From: Promethearchaeota archaeon
Lineage (GTDB): Archaea > Asgardarchaeota > Lokiarchaeia > Sigyniarchaeales > SOKP01
Assembly: GCA_030606485.1 (NCBI GenBank)
Contig: JAUWGH010000010.1
Span: forward strand, 30,001 to 62,000
Direction: 5' to 3'
DNA: 32,000 bases
Shown here piece after piece: positions 4,738 through 25,848 of this stretch (position 1 is the stretch's first letter; each line of letters starts with the position of its first letter). The notes beneath the pieces were generated by a model. That model searched no databases. It worked only from the letters and a program-made list of their open reading frames with translations, and was not told where the DNA came from. A program made the position numbers and the translations under genes.

Positions 4738-5045
4738 CTTGATTATTATAGGACTGAATCAATGAGTGTTTTAAATGGATAATAAACATAAGCAATGTTT
4801 TACATTGAAAATTTTTACATTTACTTTTACAGAATTTCTCATTATACTTTCTTCAAATTTATTTATTAAATTTTTCTTCTTGTTCATCTAATATTTTTTT
4901 ATTTCTCTATAATTGCCATAACGCTTAATTTCTTCTTATAGTTTAATTTATTATTTTCGATAAAAGGGTTTTTTATTGCCAATTGAATAGAGAAATTCGC
5001 TTTTCCTGCCGTCTTTCCTGTTAATTCGATTTCCCATTCCAGTTT

Positions 5046-6551: not shown

Positions 6552-6661
6552 TCTTACAGATTTTTTACATCCATTTTTCAGTAATCATATAATAGTTAAA
6601 TAAAAATAAAAAATGTTATAGTCTCTAAAAGAGGGTTAAATCTCAAATCATATTTCATATT

Positions 6662-7522
6662 TTAGGCTTTTATATTCTCCAATGTATTTACAATATTCTC
6701 TTCGACTGAATTACAATCAAAAAACTCTGAAATCAATTCATTTTCAAAAAAAAATCTGGTTGTTAAAGATATGAAATATTTATTAGGAATATCTCCATCA
6801 ATTCTAAACAACTTTCGCTTATGTCGTCTTTTAATATTATTGAATGTAAATATAAGTGGATTATAATTTTCCTTTTCAAAAAGCAAAGCTTTGCCATCAA
6901 TATGTATAAAAAATCCTGAATTTATATCATAATAGGCATGAATACTTCTATTTAAGACAGAATCTTTACAATAATTTTTAGAAAATTCATACATATTGAA
7001 ATTTACTAAGTTTTGGTCATTTTCTAAATTAATTAGGATTTTTAATCCTATACCAGATGGTTTAAAAAATGCAGATTTGATCGAATTATGATTTTTTAGT
7101 AATTTTTGAATTATTTCACCGTTGATAATATCAAAAGGTACTCTATGACTTTTTATCCAAGATTTAGAGGGAATTATATTCATATGATCCAGCAACTTAT
7201 CCTTTGTAAGTATTAGACAATCATCTTCGAGTGCTTCCATTATGATAATGATATCTGCTTTGATACTTGGAGGAGATTGCAAAATAATACCTCGTTCTAA
7301 GTAATATTTGTAAGACCTAAGATCATCAATACAATAATACAGTTTCCGATCAGCTATACCGATAATCCAATATGAAGACTTTAATGCATTGAACATCAAA
7401 TCAATGTACTTTATTTTAGGGGGGAAATTATTATCATAACCGGCGATATTAGAAATATCTGAGATTATATGTGGTTTTATTTTTAACACCTTTAGAGAGT
7501 AATAATTGCAGAGAGACCCCAA
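6662..7522 (-). CDS. Hypothetical protein
   Basis: 286-aa ORF with TTG start and protein-like composition; no motif I can assign. Confidence 0.7.
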   Translation of the reverse strand: MGSLCNYYSLKVLKIKPHIISDISNIAGYDNNFPPKIKYIDLMFNALKSSYWIIGIADRKLYYCIDDLRSYKYYLERGIILQSPPSIKADIIIIMEALEDDCLILTKDKLLDHMNIIPSKSWIKSHRVPFDIINGEIIQKLLKNHNSIKSAFFKPSGIGLKILINLENDQNLVNFNMYEFSKNYCKDSVLNRSIHAYYDINSGFFIHIDGKALLFEKENYNPLIFTFNNIKRRHKRKLFRIDGDIPNKYFISLTTRFFFENELISEFFDCNSVEENIVNTLENIKA

Positions 7523-7704
7523 ATTAAAATCTCTTTATTTCTAAATTAACCTAAAACTCACGCACAAATCTTAATAACTACTTCTCACGCACTTAAATCT
7601 TATAATCTAAAAATAAGCACAAAACACTTACTATACAAATATTCTACCTACTCCCTACTCACAACAAGCTGAACACTTACTAAACATAAAACTGGGGCCA
7701 ATGC

Positions 7705-8356: not shown

Positions 8357-8869
8357 TTAATAAATCTCTAAACACCAATCAATGCATTCTTCCAAAGTCA
8401 TGGAACCTAATCCCCCTTCACATATAACACCATATACGAATTCACACCCTAAAGCAAAAATGAAAGCCCACCCACCAGTCAAAGCGAGTATCAATATAAT
8501 CGTACCGCAAAAAAAACCAGCTATAAGTGCACATCCAAAGACTTGTATAAACCAACATACTGCTATACAATCAGTTTGTCCAAAATCCATTAATTTTGCT
8601 GAACTCTCGATAATCTGTAGGTCGTATTTTGGGAGTTGTTGTTTAACTAAAATGGAGAGAATCCTAATTTTATCCTCCATAATGAAGTAATTTTGAGCCA
8701 GCTGTGCGATACTTTTATCTTCAGAAATTTTATAAGATTTATCGTAGATTTTCCCAATCTTTCTCGCAACTTTACCCAAAATGTTATACATTTCCGATAA
8801 TTTAAAGATCGAATTAAACTCAATCCGTTCAAAAGTATTTATCTTCTTCTCTGTTGGAGTAAATATCAT
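8357..8869 (-). CDS. Orphan, 5'-truncated halocin-C8-like precursor (pro-domain remnant plus 76-aa, 8-Cys hydrophobic tip)
   Basis: About 52/118 aa identical by hand to the pro-domain of 9817..11205. Homology extends in frame upstream of the ATG to 8947. The tip sequence differs from the main gene. No signal peptide. Confidence 0.75.
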   Translation of the reverse strand: MIFTPTEKKINTFERIEFNSIFKLSEMYNILGKVARKIGKIYDKSYKISEDKSIAQLAQNYFIMEDKIRILSILVKQQLPKYDLQIIESSAKLMDFGQTDCIAVCWFIQVFGCALIAGFFCGTIILILALTGGWAFIFALGCEFVYGVICEGGLGSMTLEECIDWCLEIY

Positions 8870-9816: not shown

Positions 9817-11205
9817 TTAGCAACAACCTAGCATCTGACAAGCAATATAAGTACTTCCAGTCATAAGAAAATATTCTAATCCAAGAATACAGAATGCACC
9901 TGCACCAGGCACAAAGATAATTAAAAGTACACATGCTATGAATCCACCTGCAGCAACAGCAAGTTCACACAAAACACAGTCCCAGAAAGGGTCACCGCCA
10001 AAGCAGCCACCACCGCCAAGGAGGCCACCGCCACCGCCACCATTGGGTGTGTATGCATCAATTATAATTACTGAATTTTGTTGAATTGGTAAATCATATT
10101 CAGAAAGACATTTTTTTACAAGATATGAAAGTTCCTCAGCTTCTTTGTTCATGACCTTATAGTTGTTGGAAAAACCTTTTAACGAATCATCTTCACTATA
10201 TTTATATACTTCTCCAAGTTCTTTAGCTACTTCTCCTATAATATGGTATTGTTGTGATAATTTAACAGGCGAATTGAACTTTACGATCTCCATCGATGTA
10301 ATAGACTTTTCGTCGGCAGGGATATATCTTAAAATCGTGGAAGAACCATTATAGATTTCTGAATTGAGGGAAGTAAGTCTCGTATAAAAAGTCAAATTAT
10401 ATTCTTCATGTTGAGCTAGATAGTTTAGTTCATAAAATTGCGTGGACGTGTCTCCTGTAATGATTTCACTTGAAATGAAAGAAGCAGTTCTTTTGATTTC
10501 ATTTGTGATCTCATTATAACTCCATAGTAAAGTATTGATAATAGTAAACTCATAGGTTATACCATCAAACTCGTATGTTAGGAGAATTACAATATGATTA
10601 TCGTCTTGCTCTAACACTGTGGACGTGATAGTTATGGATTCACTGTTATCTGGGCATTCCTGATTACTGGTGCAGCATGGACAACCTGTCAGATATAGAA
10701 GTAGAGGTTCTATTTGAAGTTTTGGTTTTTCTATTCCATCTACTGTAACATAGTGATAAGTTGTCCAGATCGGGTATTTAACATCTATCCATGCTAGAAT
10801 GCCGCCAAGCATATTGTTGATTTTCGTAAAGCCATAGTTAACTAGGATTTCTGATGCTAATTGACTCCTGTCTCCAGCCTTGCAGTATATTATAATCTCA
10901 TGATTTACGTGATCTTCAATTTCGCTAATTCTTTTTTCAAGTCCATCGTAGGGTATTAAAATGGCATCGTATAAATGACCCTTCTTATACTCATACGGGG
11001 TTCTAACATCCAAAATTATAAGGTTTGGATATTTATTTTCTTTTTTTATCATGTTATAGGCAGTATCCACAGTAATGTTTTGAAAGGTTTGTTCTTCAGC
11101 AGCAACCGTTATTATTAAACTGAAAGATGGTAGCAAAAAGGCAACTATAATGAGCAGAGCTATTGTTTTACGACTTGTATATTTTAAATTAGTTTTTAAT
11201 TTCAT
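9817..11205 (-). CDS. Secreted rhodanese-domain protein with a C-terminal halocin-C8-like Cys-rich tip
   Basis: Basic then hydrophobic signal peptide. Rhodanese motifs LDVRTPYEY..GH, active-site loop YCKAGDRS and GGILAW. Also a GCPCC linker, a Gly-rich linker, and the tip CVLC..AAGGFIACVLLIIFVPGAGAFC..IACQMLGCC. Confidence 0.85.
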   Translation of the reverse strand: MKLKTNLKYTSRKTIALLIIVAFLLPSFSLIITVAAEEQTFQNITVDTAYNMIKKENKYPNLIILDVRTPYEYKKGHLYDAILIPYDGLEKRISEIEDHVNHEIIIYCKAGDRSQLASEILVNYGFTKINNMLGGILAWIDVKYPIWTTYHYVTVDGIEKPKLQIEPLLLYLTGCPCCTSNQECPDNSESITITSTVLEQDDNHIVILLTYEFDGITYEFTIINTLLWSYNEITNEIKRTASFISSEIITGDTSTQFYELNYLAQHEEYNLTFYTRLTSLNSEIYNGSSTILRYIPADEKSITSMEIVKFNSPVKLSQQYHIIGEVAKELGEVYKYSEDDSLKGFSNNYKVMNKEAEELSYLVKKCLSEYDLPIQQNSVIIIDAYTPNGGGGGGLLGGGGCFGGDPFWDCVLCELAVAAGGFIACVLLIIFVPGAGAFCILGLEYFLMTGSTYIACQMLGCC

Positions 11206-11225
11206 TTTTTCACACTTTTTATATT

Positions 11226-11512
11226 AAATTTTTTATTATAAAATTTTCCGTTTGTATTTTCCATTAAGTGGATATTTAAATATTACTGACAAAATATGAA
11301 TATAAAGAACCTACTATGAAATCTTCACAAGGCAAGATCAGAAAATTTTAAATGACTGGAAATTCATAATTAAATGTTTAACTACATTTAAAAACAGAAT
11401 TATTATAATATTTTAATGAACGAACATCAGAAACTTTTATTTTTTTGATTTATGATATGGCAACTTTTTTGATATTTAAAATTAGGTCTTTAATTTATAT
11501 TTATACTAAAGA
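11226..11512 (-). repeat. Repeat family 1, copy A (upstream of 9817..11205)
   Basis: Roughly 80% identical by eye to 19712-19998 and to 17954-18170. Confidence 0.9.
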
Positions 11513-11973
11513 AATGCAACATTTTCTAAATGAGCTGAACTCAATCCTAAAAAGATACTCATCTCACTTCCCGCAAAAATTTCTTCAGCTAACGTTACTA
11601 TAACGCTATTATCTTTCTCATTATAGTTTTTAGATTAATTTTTTCTTTGCCTTGACATTTCTTTTTCCAGACCCTCATTTTGATTTTTTTTTCTCTTCTT
11701 TTTTACTAATTTCCATTTTAGCTGATAAAATATCTTTGTCTATTGGTCCCTCTTCTTTCATTTCTTCTGATGCGATTGAGAAAGGAGCTTCTGGAGCTAT
11801 TACCTTTATTCATTTACCTTTCATTATCTCTTTTTTCTTTTCGGAATAACAATTTTACCTTTGAGAGCTTTTGATTCCTTTAAATCGACTATAATATTTG
11901 GAACTAGATTTTCCTTTTTTCCTTCTTTTTGTTCTAATTGCTTTCTAACTTCGGGTGAAATGGTAATGGAAAT

Positions 11974-12117
11974 TTACGTTTCGACGGTAAGGCCTGCTCC
12001 TATTGGGAGTAATTGCGAAAAAAATCTTTCGGGATCTTCTGTAAATCGCTTTAAAAGTTTTTCATCTATTCCTTCTAACTCCTTGGGAACTTTTTTTTTG
12101 GATTTTTGAGATTCCAT
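11974..12117 (-). CDS. 47-aa small ORF; the frame stays open past the TAA to 11824 (possible pseudogene)
   Basis: GAGGT Shine-Dalgarno. Translation MESQKSKKKVPKELEGIDEKLLKRFTEDPERFFSQLLPIGAGLTVET. Plus-strand ORFs 11652 and 11861 are its antisense shadows. Confidence 0.5.
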   Translation of the reverse strand: MESQKSKKKVPKELEGIDEKLLKRFTEDPERFFSQLLPIGAGLTVET

Positions 12118-12432
12118 ATAACAACCTCAATTTTAAATTGAATTATTACACCTTTTTAAATTTAAATTATATTTACATTTTCAATTAATGATTTTGGAAC
12201 ATAAATGAATATTTAAATATAGATGGTTAAAAAAAAATACAACAAAAATACTATGAGAGCTATGGATCATAGGATTATGAGCTTTAAAAAACTAATACTT
12301 GTGAATTCATAGATTTAACAACATTCTAAAAGCAAAATATAATATGAATTAAATATATGAATATTTTAAAACATTATTTTTTTAATTGTTATATGCCAAA
12401 AATATTTATGTTTCTCTGAAAGATATTATAAT

Positions 12433-13518
12433 ATGGTATCTAGAAGAAATTTATCTAAGAAAAAAATTTCGTCCCAAAACATTTCTGTATCTCCTTACCT
12501 TAGAGATTGGGTCGAAAGGTATGTCAAGATGGAACAGAAAAAGAACCCTAACGATAAAAGAGTTAAGAGTATATCCTCCTTTTACAATTATGTAATGGAA
12601 TCTGTTCTAAAAATTTTCGAAAAGGGAAAAACCCTAGATGATTTAGAAATATTTGTGGATAAAAAAGTTCAGAATTTCTATGATAAAATCACATTTAGAG
12701 CGCTAATACCCTACTATGAGCAGATAATCAAAATAAACAAATATCAACCAATAGAATTTGATTGTTTAATAGATCTATTCTTAAAATATAGAAGTTTTCT
12801 TATCGGTAAAAATGAGCCTAGTGATGAGATCGCACTGAATATGATAGAAAGATTTAAAAATTTTATGCTCGCTAATAAATTGACCAAGGATTTCAAGATC
12901 GATATTATAAATAATTCTTATATCATAGAATATTCTGGATATTACCCCAATATACATTATGATCATTCGAAATGGATAGCTGGATTAGCTGGGCTTCTAG
13001 GTCTAAAGATAAAGAATTTGATCATATCTAATAACTTTTTAAGATTATCTCTTGAAAAGACTTCTCTGTTTAAAATTCGAGATTTGGAGATAGAAAGGAG
13101 AAGAGAGCTATTTTATTATAATGTTAATAAATTTACGAACTGGTACAGAGTTATAGATGATCAAACTCAACATCTATGGCTAAAAATGTCAAATAATAAA
13201 GATATAATCATTAATTTCAAGGATGTTACAAGTGGTCTTGAGTTTATAAATTCAATAATAAGAGACTTGGTGGAATATGCCAAAACAGAGAACTTAGTTT
13301 TAGATATTTTAAAATTATTTAGATATTTCCGCTGGATTGACATTGATAATTTTGAAAAACCATCATTTCACTTTTGTGTTGAGGATAAGCACCATCACAT
13401 TATAAGGGAGATGGTCTTTAATATATTACAAAAAATGAAAGTAATAATAAAAGAAGAAAATGAAATATTTTATTTAAACTTGAAACAAATCTCTTGCATT
13501 GACTATACAGTTCTCTAA
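12433..13518 (+). CDS. Putative regulator: N-terminal ribbon-helix-helix-like segment plus uncharacterised sensor-like domains
   Basis: NISVSPYLRDWVERYV...SISSFYNYVME has a strand-helix-helix pattern. The domain assignment is inference. Confidence 0.55.
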   Translation: MVSRRNLSKKKISSQNISVSPYLRDWVERYVKMEQKKNPNDKRVKSISSFYNYVMESVLKIFEKGKTLDDLEIFVDKKVQNFYDKITFRALIPYYEQIIKINKYQPIEFDCLIDLFLKYRSFLIGKNEPSDEIALNMIERFKNFMLANKLTKDFKIDIINNSYIIEYSGYYPNIHYDHSKWIAGLAGLLGLKIKNLIISNNFLRLSLEKTSLFKIRDLEIERRRELFYYNVNKFTNWYRVIDDQTQHLWLKMSNNKDIIINFKDVTSGLEFINSIIRDLVEYAKTENLVLDILKLFRYFRWIDIDNFEKPSFHFCVEDKHHHIIREMVFNILQKMKVIIKEENEIFYLNLKQISCIDYTVL

Positions 13519-15027
13519 TCTTATCTCATATTTTTTATTCATTTCACTTTCCATTCTTGGTTTAAACAACTCAAAGTTCATTTCGCTTATTTTTATCAAC
13601 GAACGAATTAAATTTTTGGCATATGGAGAGGAGGTAGATACGGGCGATTTAAGAAGTGCTTCCACAAATCTAGAATATACATCTAGAATCTTCTTTTCAC
13701 TTTCGTGATATGCTTTAAATGCGTATTTTAATGCGGAAAATCCTTTCCCTAGATTTTTATGCTCGAATGGAAAGAAACCTTCATGATATACGAATTCAGA
13801 TGGAAGATCATCTCCAAAAATTCTTCCCTCACTTTTAAGTTGTTCGTAAAGTGGCGTCATTGGAAGCGGTTTTAGAGTAGATATGAAATACCAGAGGGAG
13901 TCATATTCTAAATTTCTTTGTATATCAATTTCAATTGTCTTTTTATTATGTATCGGCAACCCAAGAATAAAGTTGTGATTCGTTATAATACCCATATCAT
14001 TAAGCGACTTAATAAAATTGTTATTTAAACCCTTATTCTTTTCGTATTTTTGAAGAGTGGATTCTATTCCATAGTTGACTAACATGAATTTGATAGCAGA
14101 TTCTTCTTGAATTTTTTTAAGGTTGAATGTTTTCAAATGAGAAAGCGAAATTAAACAAATGATATACATATAATTATTATATCTGCTCTTATTTTCAATA
14201 AAATAATCAAATACCTTTTTCCACACACTCTCTGGAAAGCAAGCATTTGGTTCACATAAATACAATATCATATCACCATCATTTGAGGACATTATTTTTT
14301 CTAGAAGTTCTATTATCTTCTTATGATTACTAAACGGATTGTACTGATAAATTGCGGAAGTAATACAGAAATCACATCTAAATGGGCAACCAATCTGGGA
14401 GACCATATAGGCGGTTTTCATATTTGTTAGAAAACTAAATTGATCAGATATAATTGTCGGCATTTTAAAACCTTCCCTGGAAATGGTAGGGAGGTTGAAT
14501 TTTTTACGAAGCCAGTTAATTCCATTCCCAATACATATGTTTTGCGGTTTAATCAATTTTTGTATATAAGGAAATAATACTCCGATACCGCCCGTGTATA
14601 TTTTTTTGTCTGGATAGTCTCTTTGAATCATATTTATCACATCTACGACTTTATTCAACCCATTTGCATAAGTACTTAATCCAATATGTGTAATCTCATC
14701 ATCTTTATCTAGAATATTCTGAGCATTTTGCACGTTGCACACATCATCAATCACAACAGAGTCAATCTCAGGCAGGTTTTCTGCTAGAAAGTGGCCCTCA
14801 ATATTAGGTGAGTTTAATATATTTGCATAAATAGCAGCATTAAAAGGATTTAATTTGTATCCATATTCGTCGAATGCTCTCTGTATTTCCTCCTTATCAA
14901 CATATTGGGGGTAATCATCATATTTTGGATCATTCAAAACTTCCAGAGCAAGATGCTCCGTCGGTTTTAATTCCTTTGAAAGAGTTTTTAAGAATAAAAT
15001 TTTTGGTTTTCTCAATAATAGCACCAT
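13474..15027 (-). CDS. Cobalamin-binding radical SAM protein
   Basis: CxxxCxxC motif (GCPFRCDFC) preceded by a Rossmann-like B12 domain (HIGLST...KIYTGG), followed by GIES and FILGLP TIM-barrel motifs. Confidence 0.9.
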   Translation of the reverse strand: MVLLLRKPKILFLKTLSKELKPTEHLALEVLNDPKYDDYPQYVDKEEIQRAFDEYGYKLNPFNAAIYANILNSPNIEGHFLAENLPEIDSVVIDDVCNVQNAQNILDKDDEITHIGLSTYANGLNKVVDVINMIQRDYPDKKIYTGGIGVLFPYIQKLIKPQNICIGNGINWLRKKFNLPTISREGFKMPTIISDQFSFLTNMKTAYMVSQIGCPFRCDFCITSAIYQYNPFSNHKKIIELLEKIMSSNDGDMILYLCEPNACFPESVWKKVFDYFIENKSRYNNYMYIICLISLSHLKTFNLKKIQEESAIKFMLVNYGIESTLQKYEKNKGLNNNFIKSLNDMGIITNHNFILGLPIHNKKTIEIDIQRNLEYDSLWYFISTLKPLPMTPLYEQLKSEGRIFGDDLPSEFVYHEGFFPFEHKNLGKGFSALKYAFKAYHESEKKILDVYSRFVEALLKSPVSTSSPYAKNLIRSLIKISEMNFELFKPRMESEMNKKYEIRLENCIVNARDLFQV

Positions 15028-15031
15028 AATA

Positions 15032-16039
15032 TTATTTATTTAATTTGTGAATTTTTGTTATTCCCATTAGTATTGCATCCTTTCCATTCAAATAAAATGG
15101 CAGGAATCCATAATATCTGATATTTAGGTTTAGAAGTAAGCTCTGTAATTGTCTATCATTAATATCAATTACAAAGGATAACGAATTAATTTCATCGGTG
15201 TAATAGAAATCGTTTACAATTTTTTTAATTATCTGATATTTTAAATCTAACGGGATATCATTTATGAATCGAAAATCATACCAAGATTTATGGTATTCAT
15301 TCTCGTATAATTGTGCGCATATACCTCCTTTGTTCATTACAAAATTTTCAGTTCGGATTAGAATCTCATATGGAAATCGATCTTCTATCTTTTCTATTTT
15401 AATTTTATACATTTTTTGAGTAGGAGTCGTTGGTAAAAATATTGGCTGAGCAACGATAAGTCGCTTTAAACCATTTTCTTTGATTGTTTTATAGAGATAT
15501 TTGCAAAACGCTATGTATGGAGTTATAAGTTTCCATTTAAAATCATATGATACCCTCCCAAAAATAATAAACGACTTATTTTTATCATGCATAGGAGTGG
15601 TCCCCAGTTTTACAAAATTATGATTTGTAAGTATTTTTAATATTGGAGTATTAGTGCTACTTACAAATGCATATATACATTTAAGATCAGATTCATTCAA
15701 ATTATTTAATACTTGTTCCATATGAAAACTTATGAGTGTCATAACACCTATGCCTTTGTATTTTTGATTCCCCATTGTCAGCTTTAAGAATGCTACGCCA
15801 TGCTTTATTACACTTAGCATCTGTGCGATTAATTTCCCCTTGTAAAAACCCCCCTTCCAAAAAACGTTATTTTTATCAATGTTATCCTTTATATAACTAC
15901 TAATAATTGCTCTTTCGTAGAACTCCTTCTCTGGATACTCATTCCCATATATTTCCTTAATTAAATTAATAATTTCATCTATATCTTCATAGATGATATC
16001 CCTTACTTCGACTTCTCTCAGAATTTTATATTTTTTCAT
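15032..16039 (-). CDS. GNAT-family acetyltransferase-like protein (probably two GNAT-like domains)
   Basis: VRDIIYEDIDEIINLIKEIYG start, YKGIGVMT motif-A-like segment, NHNFVKLG motif-B-like segment; 4 bp upstream of the radical SAM gene. Confidence 0.7.
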   Translation of the reverse strand: MKKYKILREVEVRDIIYEDIDEIINLIKEIYGNEYPEKEFYERAIISSYIKDNIDKNNVFWKGGFYKGKLIAQMLSVIKHGVAFLKLTMGNQKYKGIGVMTLISFHMEQVLNNLNESDLKCIYAFVSSTNTPILKILTNHNFVKLGTTPMHDKNKSFIIFGRVSYDFKWKLITPYIAFCKYLYKTIKENGLKRLIVAQPIFLPTTPTQKMYKIKIEKIEDRFPYEILIRTENFVMNKGGICAQLYENEYHKSWYDFRFINDIPLDLKYQIIKKIVNDFYYTDEINSLSFVIDINDRQLQSLLLNLNIRYYGFLPFYLNGKDAILMGITKIHKLNK

Positions 16040-16420
16040 ATTTGTTAAAAAATTTCTTTTATAAAATAATTATAAAATCTTACATTTTTATAAAAAAAGA
16101 CCCATGAGAATTACTAAAGTTCAATTTTTACTTATAAGCGCTTCTCTCTCCAAAAAGTTTTAAAATTTCTTTTTTCGTCGATTTTTTGTCGGTCTTATAT
16201 TTAAATAAAAATATTATGATAATAGGGTTGGTCTAATTTCTTAGAATAGCTCAAATGTTAGTTTTAAAAATTATTAAGAAAAAATAAGAATTAATTTATC
16301 TGAATATTATTGAATTCCTATAAAAAATTCTTTCCAATTCAACAACATTCTGAATTTTGAATAGTTTATTGACCAGCTTTGAAATTTTTTTCAATCATAA
16401 TAAATGTTAATTAAAATTGA

Positions 16421-16682
16421 TAATTTTGAGACAAAAAATGGTTGCCATATTATAAATCGAAAAATGAAAGTTATATTACCATTTCATCTAAAAATTTTAT
16501 TATAAAATAATAATAAAATAAGGTTAAAAATTTTAAGGTATTTTTAAAATCTTTTAAATTTGTGGGATTTAATCTTGTATAGGGTTTAACATAGTTTCAT
16601 TGTGATTAAAAATTGTCATATGTATTTAAAAAGGAAAATCTACTGAATGTTATTATCGAAAATTATAAGAAAAATAAATTAA
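16421..16682 (+). repeat. Repeat family 2, copy D (upstream of 16700..17431)
   Basis: Roughly 85% identical by eye to 20376-20642. Confidence 0.9.
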
Positions 16683-16699
16683 TGTAAAAATATTTTGGG

Positions 16700-17431
16700 G
16701 TGAAATTCATGAGTGAAAGAATTTATGGGAAAATGCCATTAGATTATAGTGAAATTAAGGAATTGAAAACAATTGCCAAAGTAGAATTAGGATGGGATAA
16801 GGTAATTGGAGAACTGTGGGATTCCTCAAATGCACTTCTTAGAACTGAAATTGCCAATAGAGGAAAAAATAGAGCAAAAATTTTGAAAATGAAGGAAAGG
16901 GAGAAAACTTACAAAAGACGGGAGAAATCATACCATATACTGAGTGTGGGACATCTAAAGAAAACGTTAGAATTGATAGATGAATCAGTAAAAACTCTAG
17001 GAGATGAAAAAATTAACGAGCTAGAAAAAGTAAAAGAAAATGTAGCTCCACTACGTAATGAAGCGTTGGATTTTATTAAAGAGTCTTTGTTGGAAGAAGA
17101 TATTGAACCTGAAATACCAGGTGAAATTGTAGATATTTATGAAGAATTAGTAAAAGTTGTAGAAGCTGATGGTTTTAAGGGATTAGTTAATAATATCAAG
17201 AAAAACCTGAATGAATTAATTGAAATTCGTTCTGATGAATCAAAAAATAGGGGACGTGACGAAAAACATTCTCCACTTCTGTGGTGGAAATGGCTTATTG
17301 TCGCAGGAATTGTTGGGGCGGGAGTGGCTGTACTTATACCGTGCTTGATATGGCATAAATGTTCATGGTTAATAGCAATTGCCAGTAGGGTTGCTTATTG
17401 GATTATTGAAGTTATTAAAACGGGTTGTTAA
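16700..17431 (+). CDS. Helical charged protein with a hydrophobic Trp/Cys-rich C-terminal hairpin (likely start ATG 16709)
   Basis: E/K-rich helical first ~185 aa, then HSPLLWWKWLIVAGIVGAGVAVLIPCLIWHKCSWLIAIASRVAYWIIEVIKTGC. GGGGTGA Shine-Dalgarno before 16709. Confidence 0.8.
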   Translation: MKFMSERIYGKMPLDYSEIKELKTIAKVELGWDKVIGELWDSSNALLRTEIANRGKNRAKILKMKEREKTYKRREKSYHILSVGHLKKTLELIDESVKTLGDEKINELEKVKENVAPLRNEALDFIKESLLEEDIEPEIPGEIVDIYEELVKVVEADGFKGLVNNIKKNLNELIEIRSDESKNRGRDEKHSPLLWWKWLIVAGIVGAGVAVLIPCLIWHKCSWLIAIASRVAYWIIEVIKTGC

Positions 17432-17450
17432 ATAACAGCTCTTAGGATAT

Positions 17451-17815
17451 CTAGAATTTTAATTTAATTTTTTTTTCTAATTTATCTTTAATATATGAAA
17501 TCTTTATTTGTAAATTATCTAAGAAGCTATACTCTGGAATATGTTCTGTGTCTTAATGTTCTCTAATTCGATTATGTACACTTGAATTTAAAAAATCTAT
17601 ACTCATCCTAAGTAAATTTAAATAATTACCTAGTGAATCTCCTTTCAATTGATCTTCTTTCTTAATTTCTTCTCTCTTCATATAGATAATAATGCGTTAG
17701 ATTGTATAATTCTAAATATGCTTTTGCCCTCATAAGCAGTCATGCTGGGAATATCATATCTTAAAATTGGTACTGAAGCATCTTTCTCAAATTTCATTAA
17801 AGGTTCTTCTGACAT
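17451..17815 (-). pseudogene. Decayed hypothetical gene downstream of repeat copy B
   Basis: MSEEPLMKFEKDASVPILRYDIPS... then a frameshift to MKREEIKKEDQLKGDSLGNYLNLLRMS... and an in-frame TAA. Confidence 0.4.
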
Positions 17816-17891
17816 ATAATATCATCTCTACTCTTAATTAGATTTCTCTATAATATGGAATTTTACTTTAATGAAAATAAAGTAAAAATCA

Positions 17892-18170
17892 CTCTTTTCA
17901 ATATACCATTTCATTTTTTTATCAATTTTCTAATATCTTATACATTTAAGTCAAATTTTTAACTATAAAATTTTCCGTTTGCATTTTTCATTAAGTAGAT
18001 ATTTAAATATAACTGACAACATATGAATACAACGAATCTACTATGAGATCTCCACAAGGTAAGATCATAAAATTCTAAATAATTGGGAATTCATAATTAA
18101 ATGTTTAACTAAATTTAATAATTGAATTATTATAAAAAATTAATGAATAGATGTCAGAAACTTTTATTTT
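17892..18170 (-). repeat. Repeat family 1, copy B (truncated 10 bp from the stop of 18181..19539)
   Basis: Direct repeat of 19651-19929; lacks the GATATGGCAAC end. Confidence 0.9.
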
Positions 18171-18180
18171 ATCTGCTTAC

Positions 18181-19539
18181 TTATCTAATATTCATAGTAT
18201 GCCAGGTGTAATCTGTTCTGGTGTGGGCTCCATCGCTAATTATCGTCTTATCGCTAACAGATAATCTCAACATGTATGGACCTTTACTTAATCCACTAAT
18301 GTTCCAGATTCCAAGTTGACCGTTGATTACAGGTGTGTGGTTTCCTGTAGGAGGATAAGAAATTCCAGCATTGGTCAATTCCGTTTGGCTGCATCCTACC
18401 CAATGGAGATTATAAGCCATAAAATAGTCGTCAGAAGCAGTGCCTTGAATTTGGATGCTCGTCCCATCAGCTTTATTGAGAATTCCACACGATGCGGGAG
18501 TAGATATTTCGGCTGGTGGAGTAATGGGTGTATTGTGCAGAAATACAAGTTGAGTGTCTTGGAAAGTATTTTCATTTTCATCCCATACAACCAGAATGAC
18601 CGTGTGGATACCTTCTATGTTTTGTGTGTTCCATTTAGCAATTGAGCCATCCCAAACCCGATTTGTTCCTTCTGCAATGGTGGTAAATGGATCAGAACCG
18701 CTCTGACCTAACCGAGGATCGCTGGAATCGATAAATCCTATGCCATAGCTAAGTCTCCATTTAACGACCTTTGCACCCCAAATTCTACCAAATATTGTAG
18801 TATTGCCTCCAAAAGGTCGATCATCGATCCCTCCATAGGAAGCTAGTCCAGATGCTTTAATATCGGCGATGGGTACAGGTCCAACCTTGTTTATTGCAGC
18901 TGTAACATAATCGATCTCTATTGTATACTCCTTTCCTCTGTGATAACAATAGGGAGGACAATCATGTGGGATCCCCCACACATCTTGATCTATTTCAGTC
19001 TCGTGAATGACCACGCCTTGAGGATTTCTGACAGTAAAGATTACATCTGGTAGTGGTATGAAATATCTTATTCTTTCTGGTTCATCTCGATCGAAGTCTG
19101 TATCATCAAACCAAATGTTGAATTCGCCAGCCGCGTCAGTAATATCCTCGTCCAATGGATCTTTATACTGTCCGTCACTATCAAACGCCTTAACAGTTAA
19201 TCCTTGTAAGGGTTCACCACTCATTTTATCTAGAACTCGACCCTTGAGATGCCAATCTTTAGGCGATGGAATGCAGATAACTATCCAATCTGCCACATCT
19301 ACAACTGTACCAACCATAACACCAATTTCTTTGGACGACAGGATAGTGTTTCGATAGGACATTTTGATAAATCTAGGCTTATGTTCAGAACCGCATTCGA
19401 AGTCGAAATTCCCTTGTTTATTTGAGACGGCAGAACCAAGAAAGGTTCCCTTTTCATCGTACGCTTTTACTTTTAACCCTTCCAATGGTTTATCTTTTTG
19501 TCCTAGAATTCTACCTTTAAATCGGTATTTTATATCCAT
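18181..19539 (-). CDS. Beta-rich protein: two transthyretin-like / carboxypeptidase-regulatory-like domains plus a DRPFGG C-terminal region
   Basis: Two repeats of GR.L....PL.GL.VKA.D....L....(S/T)...G.F. The C-terminal region is shared with 22988..25597. No signal peptide. Confidence 0.8.
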   Translation of the reverse strand: MDIKYRFKGRILGQKDKPLEGLKVKAYDEKGTFLGSAVSNKQGNFDFECGSEHKPRFIKMSYRNTILSSKEIGVMVGTVVDVADWIVICIPSPKDWHLKGRVLDKMSGEPLQGLTVKAFDSDGQYKDPLDEDITDAAGEFNIWFDDTDFDRDEPERIRYFIPLPDVIFTVRNPQGVVIHETEIDQDVWGIPHDCPPYCYHRGKEYTIEIDYVTAAINKVGPVPIADIKASGLASYGGIDDRPFGGNTTIFGRIWGAKVVKWRLSYGIGFIDSSDPRLGQSGSDPFTTIAEGTNRVWDGSIAKWNTQNIEGIHTVILVVWDENENTFQDTQLVFLHNTPITPPAEISTPASCGILNKADGTSIQIQGTASDDYFMAYNLHWVGCSQTELTNAGISYPPTGNHTPVINGQLGIWNISGLSKGPYMLRLSVSDKTIISDGAHTRTDYTWHTMNIR

Positions 19540-19650
19540 TTGGTTTCCCTCCTATAATTTAAATAAGCTTGATTTGTTCGCTCAACGTCATAGAGGTTAA
19601 TTCCCATCAATTTATAAGTAAGTATATCCAATATTTTTTTGAGTTTCTCG

Positions 19651-19998
19651 CTCTTTTCAATATGCCATTTCATTTTATTATCAATTTTTTAATATTTTAT
19701 ATATTTAAGTCAAATTTTTTATTATAAAATTTTCAGTTAGCAACTTTCAGTAAATTATTATTTAAATATAACTGACAAGAAATGAATACAACGAATCTGC
19801 TATGAGATCTTCACAAAGCAAGATCACAAAATTTTAAATGACTGGGAAATCATAATTAGATGTTTAACTAAATTTAATAATTGAATTATTATAAAAAATT
19901 AATGAATAAATATCAGAAAATTTTATTTTTTTGATTTCTGATATGGCAACATTTTAAATGTTTTAGATTGGGTGCATAATTTATCTTCATATTAAAGA
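19651..19998 (-). repeat. Repeat family 1, copy C (upstream of 18181..19539)
   Basis: Longest copy; aligns to both A and B. Confidence 0.9.
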
Positions 19999-20375
19999 TT
20001 TTATACTCAATATGAAGAATTTATTTAATTAATGAAAAAATTAGAAATTAAATTAAAAGTAAGCTAATCGAGTGAAACTAAAATGTACACTAAATGAATT
20101 TTTTAGCTAAGCTAAATTTGTTAATTAGAAACTCAATAGAGAGAAAATATATAATACATTTCATAATTTAATTCGAAATCTCGATTTTTAGCAATTTCAC
20201 TGTATCGATATTTTTTCAGTTTGATTTAAATATCATATTATAATTATGGGAGTAATACATCACAAAAAATTTCTATATTTCTCCCATATTATCTCTCTTC
20301 TAATTTATTATCTTTCTTAGTTTCTTGAGAATCTTTTCAAATAAATATCTGAAATTCATTTTTTTTTATGATTAT

Positions 20376-20642
20376 TAATTTCGAGATATAAAAAAAGATG
20401 CCATATTATAAATAGAAAAATAAAAGTTATATGACCATTTCAGCTAAAAATTTTATTATAAATTAATAATAAAACGAGGTTAAAAATTTTAAGACATTTT
20501 TAAAATCTTTTAAATTTGTGAGATTTAATCTTATATAAGGTTTAATTTAGTTTCATTTTGATTAAAAATTGTCATATGTATTTAAAAAGGAAAATGTACC
20601 ATGCGTTATTATTGAAAATTTTAAGAAAAAAAATAATTTAAT
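20376..20642 (+). repeat. Repeat family 2, copy E (upstream of 20673..21128)
   Basis: Aligns to 16421-16682. Confidence 0.9.
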
Positions 20643-20672
20643 TTATAATTACAAATTAATAGGTTATTAAAT

Positions 20673-21128
20673 ATGGGAGAAATGGAAATGGTGATTGGAC
20701 GACGGATTAAGATAACTTGTATTCTTGGAGATATTCTAATCATAATTGGCTGGTTTACTCCTTATTTCTATGGTTTGATTTTGGAAATTCATACCTACCA
20801 ATGGATGTGGGGGTTTAAATCAGCTAATGGTGTTATGGAGATGTTACCATTGGAAGGGGATATTTTAACGTTGTTTATACTGGCTATAATCATTTTGATA
20901 TTGGTCATTATAAACTTGATAATTTGTTTCCTTATGAGAAAACTAAAAGATAAAAGGCTAATGGGCATTCTAAAGATAATAATAGGAGTTATTATAATTA
21001 TTTTAGTAATATTACCTCTTATAATTACTCCTACGCTATTAACAAACTATACTCTTTTCGTGGGATTCTATCTAATGATAATTGGTGCTATTTTCGTAAT
21101 CATTGTTGGCGTACGTGTTATTAGGTAA
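20673..21128 (+). CDS. Four-helix membrane protein
   Basis: 151 aa with four hydrophobic segments. Confidence 0.75.
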   Translation: MGEMEMVIGRRIKITCILGDILIIIGWFTPYFYGLILEIHTYQWMWGFKSANGVMEMLPLEGDILTLFILAIIILILVIINLIICFLMRKLKDKRLMGILKIIIGVIIIILVILPLIITPTLLTNYTLFVGFYLMIIGAIFVIIVGVRVIR

Positions 21129-21480
21129 TGATAAAGAATTTAATATATTAAAACTTAAATCTAAATATTTTTTTTCAATTCTTTTTTTATTAGTTTTTAT
21201 AAAAAAAGAAAATGAGTATCGTTTGATTGTTACATTCCCTACGATTGAAATTGATGTTTATTTAATTACACCTCATAACTATGAATTTATCGAAAAAGAT
21301 ATTGATTTAGAAGTCTTTAATGATGAAGATTGTACAGTAAGAAATTACAAAGAAGAACGGCGTTTAAAAAGAAATCTTTTTAAAATTAAAAGTAACTATA
21401 TGCTCCGTTTATCTTTTTTATTTCCTAAAAAAAATCATCATTATAAAATTAAATTTAATACTCAAAAAATAGTGATATAA
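21103..21480 (+). pseudogene. Possible gene fragment
   Basis: TTG start overlapping the previous gene and an AT-rich low-complexity 5' part. The central part (EYRLIVTFPTIEIDVYLITPHNYEF) looks protein-like. Confidence 0.3.
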
Positions 21481-21783
21481 AATATTAAAAACATAAAAGT
21501 ATTTCATAGTAAAATATAATAAATGAGTAGAGACATTATATGGAATAAATAATTTCTTTGAGGAATTTCCTTTAATAAGATCTTAAATTTTTATGAGAGG
21601 GATTTTACAATCCCCATAAATATAGAATAAGGTTATTAAAATGGAAGAAAATTTTATATTCGATATTTTAACTAACGCTTTTTTCTATTCTTTCTTAATA
21701 TATCTTTCGACCTAATCTTTAAGATAAAGAGATATGGAAATATTTTAGGAGGTAGATTATTTCCTAGATAAAATTCTTCTGAA

Positions 21784-21844
21784 TACCATATTATAAATTT
21801 TTCAAAAAAATAATGTCATATTACAACTAAAAAAATAAAGCTTT
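21784..21844 (+). repeat. Two tandem degenerate copies of the shared head motif; the second is a ~40-bp direct repeat of 25614-25656
   Basis: TACCATATTATAAAT... followed by TGTCATATTACAACTAAAAAAATAAAGCTTT. Confidence 0.6.
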
Positions 21845-22026
21845 AAAATATTTATATATTTAATTTTTCCATTTAATTTATTTTTTGAACGTTGTTAAAT
21901 CTATAAATTTATGAATATATGCTTTTTAAGGCTCATAATATTGAGGTGCAAGGCTTTCATAGTAATTTTATAATATTTTTTTTTTGTCATATATATTTAA
22001 ATAAAAAAATAAATAAAAATCAAAAT

Positions 22027-22857
22027 ATGAAATCAAATAAACTTCAAAGAATAGGGAAATATAAATCTGAGAGTGGTGGCGTCATACGCTTTATTATTGA
22101 CATTGACCACGCTAAAGAATACGAATTGGATGAAGCCTTGAGTTTTTTTATTTCAGCTACCAATGATTTTGCAAGAGGTAAGGATCATTGGTTTAATGCA
22201 GATAAAGCGAAAATGCTCAAAAAGCCTGAAAAAGAAACAAAATTTAAAAAGCTATTAATGGAAGACAACGCAAAAGGCTTGGAGAAAGTTAAGAAAGCTA
22301 AAATGCTGATAAAAAAGCCACTTGACAATTTTAAAAATATTGAAAAAAAAATGAAAGTATCACATGAAGAATTTAAAAAAAACATGAACAAACGTGAAGC
22401 AGAGCTTAAAGAAAATTTAATGGTTGCAAATTTATCTCTCGATGAAATAAAAATTATCTTAGAAGAATTTACTAAGAGTAGAAAAATATTTGAAATTGAA
22501 GGAAGACAAGGACTTATTAAACACCTGAGCAATCAATTCGAAGAATTGGAGGAACTTTGCTCTGACCCTAGTAAAGGTTGGAAACGTGCTAGTGTTACAT
22601 GTGTTATTTGTATAATCATCCTGTTAATTTTAGCCATCGGTTTTATCGTGACAACAATTATTATTATTTCGTATATAGTCAACTGGAATACGAAGGAAAT
22701 TCATGATCTGAAAAATGAATCCCCAGCATGTAAAATCGATGAAATGACACCTGAGGGTAAAGAATATTTTAAAACTTTCGAAGAAGCAGACCATTACTTT
22801 AAAAATAAAGGATTTAATGGATGTGCGTGGTGTATGCCCCAATATCATACTGATTAA
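22027..22857 (+). CDS. Coiled-coil protein with one TM helix and a small C-terminal His/Cys domain (track start 21919, likely ATG 22027)
   Basis: K/E-rich helical body, hydrophobic CVICIIILLILAIGFIVTTIIII, then NWNTKEIHDL...ACKIDE...GFNGCAWCMP. Confidence 0.8.
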   Translation: MKSNKLQRIGKYKSESGGVIRFIIDIDHAKEYELDEALSFFISATNDFARGKDHWFNADKAKMLKKPEKETKFKKLLMEDNAKGLEKVKKAKMLIKKPLDNFKNIEKKMKVSHEEFKKNMNKREAELKENLMVANLSLDEIKIILEEFTKSRKIFEIEGRQGLIKHLSNQFEELEELCSDPSKGWKRASVTCVICIIILLILAIGFIVTTIIIISYIVNWNTKEIHDLKNESPACKIDEMTPEGKEYFKTFEEADHYFKNKGFNGCAWCMPQYHTD

Positions 22858-22987: not shown

Positions 22988-25597
22988 ATGGATGTAAAAA
23001 AGAAAGGATTTATAATTTACGGAAAAGTCTTAGGAAAAGTAAGCAAAAAAGGGATTACTAGCTTGACAGTTGAAGCATTGGATAAAGATCTATTATTTGA
23101 TGATCGTTTGGGCACTGCAATTACTAATAAAGATGGTAATTTTGAAATTCTGTATGATAAAGAAGATTTTCAAGAACTTTTTCTTGATTTAAAACCAGAT
23201 ATATATTTAAGGGTGAAAAATCCAAAGGGAGAAATCATATATACCACAGAAGACAAGATCAAATATGGGGTTATAGGGGTAGAAGAGTTTAATATAGTTA
23301 TTTCAGAAAAATTGATCGAAAAAATAGAAGTTGAAAGCGAAAGGCTACAATTTAAGAAATTAACGGATATCAATCCTAATTACTTTGGAAATATAATCGA
23401 TAAGAAACTCGCAATTCAATATCTCCCTGTATATGAAATGACAAATAATGTTAAATACGAAGAGTTAGTATGCGTGGGTTCTTATCCTGAAGATAATATA
23501 CTAATGGCTATTATTGAAGTAAAATTGCCTTATGGTTATAAGGGATCACTATGTAAAGCAGGTAGCAAGGAATATGTAGGTTTTTATATTGATTACAATG
23601 ATGGCGTCGGTTTTGTAAGTGTGGGCGCAATAACAGAGGTAAATGTTCATGATATTTCTTTTGTTGATGGAGGACATCTTTTTTATGCTGTACGCAAATC
23701 TTTCATTCCCAAGGATTATTTTAAATGCAATAAATCACAAATAGTTAAAGTGAGGGCGATTTTATCTTGGGAACAATTACCAACGGGTCCTAATTTCGAA
23801 CCAGTATGGGGAAATGTTGTTGATACATGGATTCAGATTAAACCAATATATCCAATTTTTTATTCTATCCCCCAATTTAAACTTTTACCAGAAGTAGAAA
23901 TAAAACCTATTGGATTAATTCCTTCTGTTGAAAAGTTTGTAATTGCAGGGGATAAAGAAGAAATTATAGAATTAATAAATAAATCCATCGAAGCGGAAAA
24001 GAGAATAAAAGAAGAAGGAAAAGTTGAAGTAGAGCGGCTTGAATTTAAGAAGATGATTATGAAAAATCCAAATTACTTCGGCTCGATTACTGAATCTACA
24101 GATAAAAATAAGATTTTCAGAGTGATACGCCATCTTCCCCCAGATACTATCAAAATTTTACTCCCTAAACTTACAATTGATCCTAACATGCTTGTACCAG
24201 TAAAATTTTATATTCTGAAAACAATGTATGAAGAATTAAAATGTATCGGACTCTATCCTAATGGTGATCTTTTGGAAGCAGTTATAGAGATTAAATTGCC
24301 GTACGGGTTTAATGGTGATTTATGTACTCTAGGTAGTAAAGAGTATGTTGCTTTTTATATCGATTGGGGTTCAGGTTATAAGCATGTAGCTACATCGACG
24401 GTGGGAGTTCACGACATCCCCGTTGTAAATGATAAACATCTTTTCTATGCCGTAAAGGCAAAAATTCCTAATATAAAATCAAAATTGAAAGATTGTCCTA
24501 TTGAAAATATTGTAAAAGTCAAGGCAATATTATCTTGGAATGAAGACCCAACCCCCTATGGGCATATTTATAAACCAACATGGGGAAATGTATTAATAAG
24601 GAATATCCAGATAAGGCCAAAAGATGGAGTAAGCGTTAAATGTGATATTGAAATTGTCAATGAAGTGCATATTGATGAAATAAGTCAAAGTGGTATTAAT
24701 GAAGGGCTTGCCATTAAGATTGATGCGTCAAACAATGCAGTTCCATTGATATATGATAGACCTTTTGGAGGTATCATTGCATGTTGGGGGAATATAAATG
24801 TTTGGGGTGCAGCATATTACAGATTTAGATATAGCAATGATGAGGGTATTACTTGGAAAAATATTACGGATGAGAGGAAAGCACGTAATACATTTCCTTT
24901 GTTACCTGTTATCACAAGAACTCCAGATAGTAATGGATGGTTTAGTAAGAGTGAATATGATACTGATATAGATAACTATAGTCTTGCTCCCTTGGTACAT
25001 TGGAGGAGTTATGGAAAGGATAATAAATATTTGCTAAAGCTTGAATTAGCAGATGCAGAGAAAAATCCACTTCCTGGACAAACAACTGATGTCTCACTTA
25101 TACTGGATAATAGAGAACCTGAACTTTTTACGTTTGGTGGAACTCCACCCCCAACACTGCCTACTAAAGGTGTTACTGTCAAAGATAGCGAAGGAAATTA
25201 TAAAAAATGTGATGCATTTATCGGAAATAAGGACTGGGAAGTATCTTTAATCTTTATCTATGGTAATTTCAGAGATGACTATTTTAAAAAATTTCGATTA
25301 AAAATATTTGGAGGAAATATTTCAGAGTCTGGTGAACAAATAGGTGAAGAAGTTCGATATGATGATCCAATTCCAGGTGTTGATGAACAAGGCATTATTG
25401 GTGCCATCGATGGAGGACTTGGTCAAGAGATTGGAAATTTAAATTTATGTCCTGATAAAATAAAGTGCGCTTACGGTATAGAACTCACGATTTGGGATAG
25501 ATCGATTGTGGGCTCTGTTAGAGGATATGAATTTAATACATATAATCACGGAAAAGATGCTTTTGTAACCTTTGATTGGGACCCCAAAGGTTGTTAA
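22988..25597 (+). CDS. Large beta-rich protein: transthyretin-like domain, two internal ~170-aa repeats, DRPFGG C-terminal region
   Basis: LTVEALDKDLLFDDRLGTAITNKDGNFEI domain. The motif ERL.FKK....NPNYFG...YEEL.C.G.YP...KLPYG..G.LC..GSKEYV.FYID...HD...HLFYAV...VKV.AILSW...WGNV...IQI.P occurs twice. No signal peptide. Confidence 0.85.
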   Translation: MDVKKKGFIIYGKVLGKVSKKGITSLTVEALDKDLLFDDRLGTAITNKDGNFEILYDKEDFQELFLDLKPDIYLRVKNPKGEIIYTTEDKIKYGVIGVEEFNIVISEKLIEKIEVESERLQFKKLTDINPNYFGNIIDKKLAIQYLPVYEMTNNVKYEELVCVGSYPEDNILMAIIEVKLPYGYKGSLCKAGSKEYVGFYIDYNDGVGFVSVGAITEVNVHDISFVDGGHLFYAVRKSFIPKDYFKCNKSQIVKVRAILSWEQLPTGPNFEPVWGNVVDTWIQIKPIYPIFYSIPQFKLLPEVEIKPIGLIPSVEKFVIAGDKEEIIELINKSIEAEKRIKEEGKVEVERLEFKKMIMKNPNYFGSITESTDKNKIFRVIRHLPPDTIKILLPKLTIDPNMLVPVKFYILKTMYEELKCIGLYPNGDLLEAVIEIKLPYGFNGDLCTLGSKEYVAFYIDWGSGYKHVATSTVGVHDIPVVNDKHLFYAVKAKIPNIKSKLKDCPIENIVKVKAILSWNEDPTPYGHIYKPTWGNVLIRNIQIRPKDGVSVKCDIEIVNEVHIDEISQSGINEGLAIKIDASNNAVPLIYDRPFGGIIACWGNINVWGAAYYRFRYSNDEGITWKNITDERKARNTFPLLPVITRTPDSNGWFSKSEYDTDIDNYSLAPLVHWRSYGKDNKYLLKLELADAEKNPLPGQTTDVSLILDNREPELFTFGGTPPPTLPTKGVTVKDSEGNYKKCDAFIGNKDWEVSLIFIYGNFRDDYFKKFRLKIFGGNISESGEQIGEEVRYDDPIPGVDEQGIIGAIDGGLGQEIGNLNLCPDKIKCAYGIELTIWDRSIVGSVRGYEFNTYNHGKDAFVTFDWDPKGC

Positions 25598-25613
25598 AAG
25601 GAAGAAGAAATAT

Positions 25614-25656
25614 AAAAAATATTGTCATAATATAGCAACTAAAAAAATAATGCTTT
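25614..25656 (+). repeat. ~40-bp direct repeat of 21804-21844, just after the stop of 22988..25597
   Basis: AAAAAATATTGTCATAATATAGCAACTAAAAAAATAATGCTTT. Confidence 0.6.
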
Positions 25657-25707
25657 CATATTTAAGTAAAAAATAGATGACAAAAATGAAGTTCTATTAA
25701 ATAAGGG

Positions 25708-25848
25708 AGGATAAAGTCTTTAATGCTTCTCCGCCCATCAATAAATAGGGGGAGGAGGAGGGCGAAAATAAGTGTAGATAAATACTACACCAACCAAAAG
25801 ACAAAAATCCAGTATGGGGGGAGATGCAACCTTTGACTTTATCCTTAC
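25708..25848. repeat. Long imperfect palindrome 1 (outer box AGGATAAAGTC)
   Basis: Outer boxes 25708-25718 and 25835-25845 are perfect inverted copies. Inner boxes 25724-25738 and 25814-25828 match 13/15. Spacers are 5 and 6 nt and unpaired. Confidence 0.75.

Follow-up and report, generated by a model that had tools for sequence, protein, structure and literature searches.

Seven copies of one repeat family within 11 kb

We analysed a stretch of archaeal DNA of 32,000 nucleotides (the window; G000:C3:30001-62000, on an 81-kb contig designated C3), in which long non-coding repeats stand upstream of genes encoding a secreted toxin precursor, membrane proteins and a beta-sandwich protein. The genome (G000) comprises 3.75 Mb at 29% GC, and its partial 16S gene reaches 901 bits with the archaeal SSU model; G001, G002 and G003 denote genomes of the same genus. 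DNA of the window turns up in metagenome runs from cold seeps and marine sediments. The contig of G003 that bears a toxin gene homolog also contains core-genome DNA, and the locus is therefore probably a chromosomal island rather than a plasmid.

A first-pass annotation of the window had described three copies of the repeat (A, B and C) in one orientation, and these were recovered in the same places by a repeat search and by BLAST comparison of the contig with itself. The repeat search returned a single family at 11162-11443, 17889-18170 and 19648-19929, whose outer copies align with the middle one without gaps at 76% and 89% identity. In the self-comparison, A and C matched with 81% identity over 326 nt (11194-11512 and 19673-19998; E 5e-83), B and C with 88.7% over 282 nt (17889-18170 and 19648-19929; E 6e-101) and A and B with 85.4% over 226 nt (11218-11443 and 17945-18170; E 6e-69). 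At most about 30 nt past each edge, identity falls to the AT-rich background of approx. 45%. The three co-oriented copies, whose functional sense is the minus strand, are located 5′ of the 462-aa toxin precursor gene (9817-11205), a decayed open reading frame (ORF; 17815 downwards) and the 452-aa gene (18181-19539), respectively. As had been annotated, 10 nt separate the end of copy B (18170) from the stop codon of the 452-aa gene (18181-18183). B and C were also said to enclose exactly one gene; they do enclose the 452-aa gene, together with a 47-aa upstream ORF (19530-19673) that overlaps its start.

The family turned out to be larger than the three annotated copies. A sensitive BLAST search with copy C additionally matched the pair 16421-16692/20376-20651, 87% identical to each other, and the inverted pair 12210-12542/21680-22003 with 77% identity. 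An nhmmer profile built from all copies found exactly seven in the whole genome (E 2e-51 to 3e-34), all of them on one contig and inside 11 kb. They fall into three subfamilies, F1 (A, B and C), F2 (a and b) and F3 (a and b), referred to as modules below (Table 1). Subfamily profiles added one marginal fragment consisting of the module head only (25611-25660; E 0.12), and an operator search of the genome with the head motif yielded no copies beyond the known ones. The absence of copies elsewhere, which the first-pass annotation had named as a counter-argument to its proposal, was thus confirmed genome-wide, with seven local copies in place of three.

Outside this genome, modules were found within the genus only, in searches of relatives by exact pattern and BLAST, which require high similarity, so that diverged modules could escape. 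BLAST with copy C in 40 relatives gave only short AT-rich matches, and a 20-kb query within the genus detected a single module, the F3b unit in G002. The exact three-anchor pattern described below occurred six times in G000, once in G002 and not at all in 152 other genomes of the order; the reversed pattern, used as a control, gave no match. The pattern was absent from a viral collection and present in one conspecific contig only of the JGI metagenome collection. Nothing comparable was found in 14 related loci around homologs of the 361-aa gene that neighbours F3a, and the head motif was not conserved upstream of such homologs in other genera.

Table 1. Modules, the genes behind them and associated features (window positions)
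Feature	Position	Strand	Description
F1A cargo	9817-11205	-	Toxin precursor: rhodanese protein of 462 aa, secreted, with a hydrophobic tail rich in Cys; Pfam Rhodanese, E 5e-15
Module F1A	11194-11512	-	Head TGCCATAT starts at 11462, GTTAAA 80 nt on, TATTTAAA starts at 11282; GGAAAAT at ~11249-11243; start codon of 462-aa gene at 11205
F3a cargo	11506-12117	-	47-aa ORF (11974-12117), then frame-broken remains
Module F3a	12173-12542	-	Head starts at 12398, TATTTAAA at 12219; 5′ extension overlaps start of divergent 361-aa gene
361-aa gene	12433-13518	+	Divergent from F3a; family widespread in the host's family of Asgard archaea
Module F2a	16421-16692	+	Head at 16443, TATTTAAA at 16623
F2a cargo	16709-17431	+	240-aa coiled-coil protein with C-terminal membrane segment and Cys tail
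F1B cargo	17553-17913	-	26-aa ORF, then decayed 45-aa and 42-aa ORFs
Module F1B	17889-18170	-	TATTTAAA starts at 18009; head truncated
F1C cargo	18181-19673	-	47-aa upstream ORF overlapping start of 452-aa beta-sandwich protein
Module F1C	19648-19998	-	Head starts at 19948, TATTTAAA at 19768
Module F2b	20376-20651	+	Head at 20399, TATTTAAA at 20579
F2b cargo	20673-21480	+	151-aa polytopic membrane protein and 125-aa ORF
Module F3b	21680-22034	+	Head at 21814, TATTTAAA at 21994; includes stop-ridden copy of first 117 nt of 361-aa gene (minus strand, 21680-21796)
F3b cargo	22027-22857	+	276-aa coiled-coil membrane protein with GCAWC tail
Head-only fragment	25611-25660	+	Directly after 869-aa gene; its first bases are the exact point where similarity to G002 stops

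A fixed arrangement of anchors in front of a TATA-like sequence

All seven modules point at the next ORF. In five of the six full copies, three anchors occupy fixed positions: the head motif TGBCATAT, accompanied by an A-run, at 0, GTTAAA at +80 and TATTTAAA at +180. In F3a the corresponding distances are 79 and 179. The sequence TATTTAAA(T)A is invariant in all seven copies. Archaeal TATA boxes follow the consensus TTTAWATA and lie approx. 25-30 nt upstream of the transcription start; TTTAAATA fits this consensus. A fourth common word, the initiator-like TGAAAAT, is found about 34 nt past the start of the TATA sequence.

Between subfamilies, ungapped identity amounted to 53-58% when the modules were aligned in register and to 28-42% at offsets of 1-4 nt, a difference seen in all three thirds of the module. 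Each 180 nt carry about 70 to 85 substitutions (approx. 45% of positions) and at most one insertion or deletion (indel). In contrast, the leaders between TATA sequence and ATG vary from 33 to 102 nt (33, 77, 86, 94, 95, 95 and 102 nt), and nearby non-coding DNA shows about one gap per 10-17 substitutions in strain alignments. The spacing of the anchors therefore looks constrained.

F3b offered a clue to the putative transcription start. The ATG of its 276-aa gene, which an independent assembly's gene call uses as well, is positioned 31 nt past TTTAAA, where the other modules carry TGAAAAT. The F3b mRNA is probably leaderless, with its ATG 33 nt past the TATA start, and by extension transcription from the modules would begin at about +33 to +35 from the TATA start. 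This would place the head at approx. -214, GTTAAA at approx. -134 and the TATA sequence at approx. -34.

In the genome as a whole, TTTAAA showed an approx. 1.5-fold excess at 21-35 nt ahead of the first ATG (257 occurrences versus ~171 expected; 1,994 long ORFs with free upstream DNA), a peak suggesting that many genes of this Asgard archaeon are leaderless. The 31 nt in F3b agree with this peak. Calibration on the upstream regions of tRNA genes was uninformative (n=15), and genes with Shine-Dalgarno sequences gave too few matches. Phasing of A-tracts produced a weak 10.5-bp signal (z 2.8) amid several non-helical peaks, from copies that are not independent of each other. Palindromes within the modules were short and specific to subfamilies, none being common to all.

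Different genes behind the same module in other strains and species

The metagenome contigs available for strain comparison are short and break at repeats. Several contig joints with 20-39 nt on the short side were left unused, and run X2, which had almost no coverage over 18144-19411 and no contig joining across, was not taken as evidence for a deletion. Four independent cargo junctions were readable, and they cluster 30-60 nt past the TATA box.

An A-type module was present in contigs from three samples (JGI 3300003144, also filed as BARU01001461, DRR463591 and SRR26080958; contigs L015/L018, L016 and L017). Its core was 92.6% identical and its upstream flank was the same, and the toxin gene was replaced by three genes for proteins of 149, 193 and 103 aa. 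Similarity to A in these contigs ends at 11242, 40 nt past the TATA start. In the block concerned (L016:724-2385, and L017), the 193-aa product is a membrane protein and the 103-aa product carries a pYEATS domain; the block is taken to be defence-related, and none of its genes has a homolog anywhere in G000. Conversely, in G002 and G003 the leader of the toxin homologs is preserved as far as 11234 and no further (92-96% identity), and unrelated DNA without a module precedes it.

The F2 modules gave a similar picture. Scaffold L050 from ENA is 98.7% identical to the window over 5.7 kb (14956-20634). Behind F2b it carries a gene for a 256-aa protein with 26-27% identity to the 240-aa protein and rejoins the window near 26183. 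Thus F2a and F2b head paralogs in this strain, and while the two modules are 87% identical, the proteins encoded behind them share 26-27%. In contig L047 (DRR463591) the 240-aa gene is headed by a b-type module with the upstream flank of F2b, and this hybrid switches to a-type sequence 28-35 nt past the TATA start. The corresponding junction (20602 to 16653) was also seen among the contig joints. It would have arisen by tandem duplication, as an excised circle or by re-ordering of the F2a-F2b interval, among which the junction does not distinguish.

Between species, the orthologous F3b unit of G002 is 97.8% identical from head to TATA sequence, without gaps. The attached pseudo-fragment of the 361-aa gene is 85.5% identical and the downstream coding sequence 60-73% (53% at the protein level), as compared to a core-genome baseline of 91-93%. 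The strain and species comparisons show that modules are retained, whereas the transcription unit that follows has been replaced or has hyper-diverged. The possibility that relatives would carry identical cargo, likewise named in the first-pass annotation as a counter-argument, proved false: in the comparison of strains that it had suggested, one and the same block was followed by other genes in conspecific strains, and also in a sister species.

Genes behind and beside the modules

The annotation had regarded the downstream genes as unrelated, and most of them are. The 462-, 452- and 151-aa proteins and the 149-, 193- and 103-aa products showed no similarity to the 240-, 256- and 276-aa proteins or to each other. 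The latter three, however, are distant paralogs with 23-27% identity. The 452-aa protein matches a CarboxypepD_reg-type Pfam family (E 1.5e-10). The 276-aa gene is followed by an 869-aa gene (22988-25597) with a product related to the 452-aa protein; both have an N-terminal beta-sandwich of the CarboxypepD_reg type in common, with 36% identity over 98 aa. Exact-protein look-ups returned nothing for the 151-aa protein and, for the 452-, 47- and 276-aa proteins, only the strain of the window itself or one short contig.

Comparison of the ORFs behind B with a 94-aa ORF in L047 revealed a 2-nt deletion and a TAT-to-TAA nonsense change; judged by this alignment, the gene behind B is truly decayed. 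A 361-nt part of the decayed region between F3a and A (11604-11964) is missing from contigs of at least three other samples.

The 361-aa protein belongs to a family detected in 17 of the 24 genomes that were searched from the host's family, often as tandem pairs, and characterized by an invariant N-terminal K..LS.KK...TISIS motif. It had no sequence match in Pfam or PDB, and its AlphaFold model (pLDDT 69.5) had no Foldseek match in PDB at E <= 0.001. The protein may bind DNA; the idea of a ribbon-helix-helix fold derives from the TISIS motif and weak Atlas hints only.

A proposed role as promoter modules and recombination anchors

Taken together, we read the repeats as seven paralogous archaeal promoter modules of about 250 bp that double as recombination anchors in a hypervariable conflict island, and assign a probability of about 0.6 to this reading. 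The analysis establishes the family with its geometry and orientation, its confinement to this locus and genus, the differences in cargo between strains and the positions of the junctions, whereas promoter activity, start site, co-regulation and homologous recombination as the mechanism of exchange are deduced. The portable promoter or recombination platform of the first-pass annotation is partly supported: seven of seven modules point at the next gene and the cargo differs, but an integron-like mechanism is not supported. As the anchors are shared, regulation of the toxin gene in common with the other module genes, likewise proposed there, is a reasonable inference.

In the mechanism that we propose, modules would arise as local duplicates in a single hypervariable island that contains toxin, membrane and surface genes, and each would supply transcription, and probably common regulation, to whatever gene follows. 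Being the only conserved DNA in the island, the modules would also act as homology arms. Recombination within or just past a module would delete, duplicate or replace the downstream transcription unit, which would leave strains with the same modules and different cargo. The exchange looks homologous rather than integron-like.

Traces of the presumed duplications are preserved. Part of the divergent 361-aa gene, from its 5′ end, is contained in the F3 copies (in F3b 117 nt with stop codons, in L016 ~290 nt). These pieces and the F2 pair heading paralogs indicate that the family began by local duplication of promoter plus gene. The annotation had considered remnants of a tandem gene duplication as an objection, and this is partly true: the 240-, 256- and 276-aa cargo proteins of F2 and F3 are distant paralogs and F3 drags along a 5′ piece of the 361-aa gene. 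Within F1, the similarity between A and C continues into the leader and start codon of the toxin gene itself. This is a hint, which we treat with low confidence, that an A-like unit was the source of B and C; such an origin would explain the upstream ORFs starting with MKW.

Several observations weigh against the promoter and anchor interpretation. TATA-like words are frequent in DNA of 28% GC. Conspecific strains show no better conservation of the modules than of the surrounding DNA, with 92.6% identity in the core of A versus 97-100% in its flanks and 93% in the core of C versus 99.5-100% in adjacent DNA; at that scale, the data therefore do not demonstrate constraint across all 180 bp. Other segments of the island are also 97% identical between species, and the high identity of F3b could thus reflect recent exchange rather than constraint. 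Where visible, the right-hand ends of swapped blocks are not at modules. Gene conversion between the F1 copies was not shown, variant bases being shared at chance level, and part of the cargo diversity is old paralogy.

As to rival explanations, the repeats could be passive remnants of segmental or tandem duplication without a special role in cargo exchange or shared control. This would agree with the local confinement of the family, with its variable 5′ edges (117 to ~290 nt of the 361-aa gene in F3, truncation of B), with the paralogy of the 240-, 256- and 276-aa proteins and with the lack of extra conservation between strains. It accords poorly with anchors that stay in register with at most one indel over 180 bp at ~45% divergence, with F2 promoters that are far more similar than their proteins (87% versus 26-27%), with four independent junctions clustered past the TATA box and with an orthologous module heading cargo that has no homolog in this genome. 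We therefore regard passive duplication as unlikely. A site-specific cassette system of the integron or shufflon type is very improbable. It would use the head as attachment site and a recombinase encoded elsewhere or of a family not described so far, and the head is indeed the best conserved block between subfamilies (15 of 15 positions between F1A and F2). A head-only copy marks the point at which similarity to G002 ends, the truncation of B falls within the head, and contig joints from other samples fall near heads (12427/21805, on opposite strands, with only ~34 nt on one side). The readable junctions, however, lie past the TATA box and at least 200 bp from the head, the copies differ in their 5′ edges and no conserved hairpin was found. 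The contig harbors no gene for a tyrosine recombinase (PF00589), serine recombinase (PF00239) or TnpB (PF07282). In the genome, PF00589 matched on contig C1 only, resolvase had no match and TnpB matched on contigs other than C3. The integron-like cassette mechanism suggested in the first-pass annotation is not supported by these results.

About as improbable is that the modules are a cis-regulatory leader RNA or encode a small non-coding RNA, with RNA structure accounting for the fixed length. Fixed length and conserved sequence blocks would suit such an element, and TATAAAT in the head might serve as a second, upstream TATA box giving a leader of ~250 nt. Yet no Rfam match reached the gathering score, the z-scores of the minimum free energy were -0.47 and -0.18 on the two strands, and RNAalifold calculated a consensus energy of about zero with one 11-pair hairpin only. 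The RNA structure for which the annotation had recommended a covariation analysis was thus not recovered. No tRNA or tmRNA was found in the modules, and a coding function was rejected since every frame is full of stop codons. Least probable is a miniature transposable element of the MITE type with an outward promoter. The multiple copies of 250-330 bp upstream of genes speak for it, but neither terminal inverted repeats nor target duplications were found, all copies reside inside 11 kb with none dispersed in the 3.75 Mb, and none occurs in the viral collection. The transposon explanation is largely refuted by the missing terminal repeats and dispersed copies.

A more far-reaching version of the promoter and anchor interpretation is tentative and, in our view, rather doubtful. 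The modules might constitute a promoter-centred gene-capture platform, a rigid unit of ~215 bp with anchors at approx. -214, -134 and -34 that resembles a distal activating sequence more than a compact prokaryotic promoter and to which transcription units, incoming or resident, are joined at the start site. If so, an Asgard archaeon could bring toxin, surface and defence genes that are unrelated to each other under one regulatory circuit, and would need no integrase for this.

Irrespective of this version, the locus repeats one promoter design in seven natural replicates, whose conserved sites precede the TATA box by 100 and 180 bp, and hence provides a ready test bed for long-range control in this lineage. 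The population data display gene turnover in a conflict island that keeps its promoters and exchanges the transcription units which follow them. Should a single regulator bind the shared anchors, toxin and neighbouring genes would belong to one co-regulated weapon and surface programme.

Comparison with known systems

Conserved 5′ blocks before variable genes are known from the upsA/B/C regions of Plasmodium var genes, the upstream homology sequences of Borrelia vmp genes and the promoter regions of Mycoplasma vlp and vsp genes. As in these systems, highly divergent genes are preceded by long conserved upstream DNA that falls into a few sequence classes, and the conserved block would confer both expression control and homology for recombination, two roles that are putative here. 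In contrast to them, the modules occur in an archaeon, have a rigid 0/+80/+180 geometry and show no evident mechanism of phase variation, and many genes behind them share neither fold nor family.

Polymorphic toxin cassette arrays combine a conserved N-terminal coding region with variable C-terminal tips and neighbouring immunity genes. Those with orphan cassettes recombine through coding homology, namely the constant region of the toxin (Zhang et al. 2012, PMC3482391). The present island resembles them in its gene content, with small membrane proteins and an orphan tip besides the secreted toxin precursor, and in a diversity that would be generated by recombination with cassettes and no dedicated recombinase. 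The homology here is a non-coding promoter module that also heads non-toxin genes; being non-coding, the repeats are not the recombining constant region of the polymorphic toxin model.

The attC site of integrons is an imperfect palindrome that folds and is located at the 3′ end of a promoterless cassette. Integron arrays and the island have in common that unrelated genes are arrayed and vary between strains. Unlike integrons, the island has no IntI and no folded attC, its junctions are not at a fixed site, and its modules, equipped with a TATA box, lie 5′ of the genes, so that each gene has its own promoter block in place of one platform promoter.

Archaeal promoters with upstream activating sites are exemplified by those of Ptr2/Lrp-type activators, which act upstream of the TFB recognition element (BRE) and TATA box. 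The modules likewise combine a TATA box with conserved upstream sites at fixed distance, but their anchors, 100 and 180 bp upstream, are much further away than described archaeal activator sites.

Further observations on the island and its surroundings

A 170-aa orphan toxin tip (8357-8869) matches residues 299-445 of the 462-aa protein with 33% identity. The segment 7743-8791, comprising this tip and a convergent 151-aa membrane gene, is 97% identical to G001:C44, compared to a core baseline of ~90%, which suggests recent exchange between species. The 3′ end of the 869-aa gene (24968-25625) is 97% identical to G002:C106, and the similarity ends exactly at the first bases of the head-only motif. 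Further downstream, a piece of ~74 nt from a palindromic element (25740-25812) represents a dispersed repeat with 93-96% identical copies on G000:C10 and in all four same-genus genomes.

The genes for 501-aa (4889-6560) and 286-aa (7115-7684) proteins have second copies at C3:63470-65143 and C3:70565-71131, with 77-80% identity at the nucleotide and 68-73% at the amino acid level. Outside the window, G000:C3:67079-68004 contains a tandem array of about nine copies with a 102-nt period and 84-88% identity.

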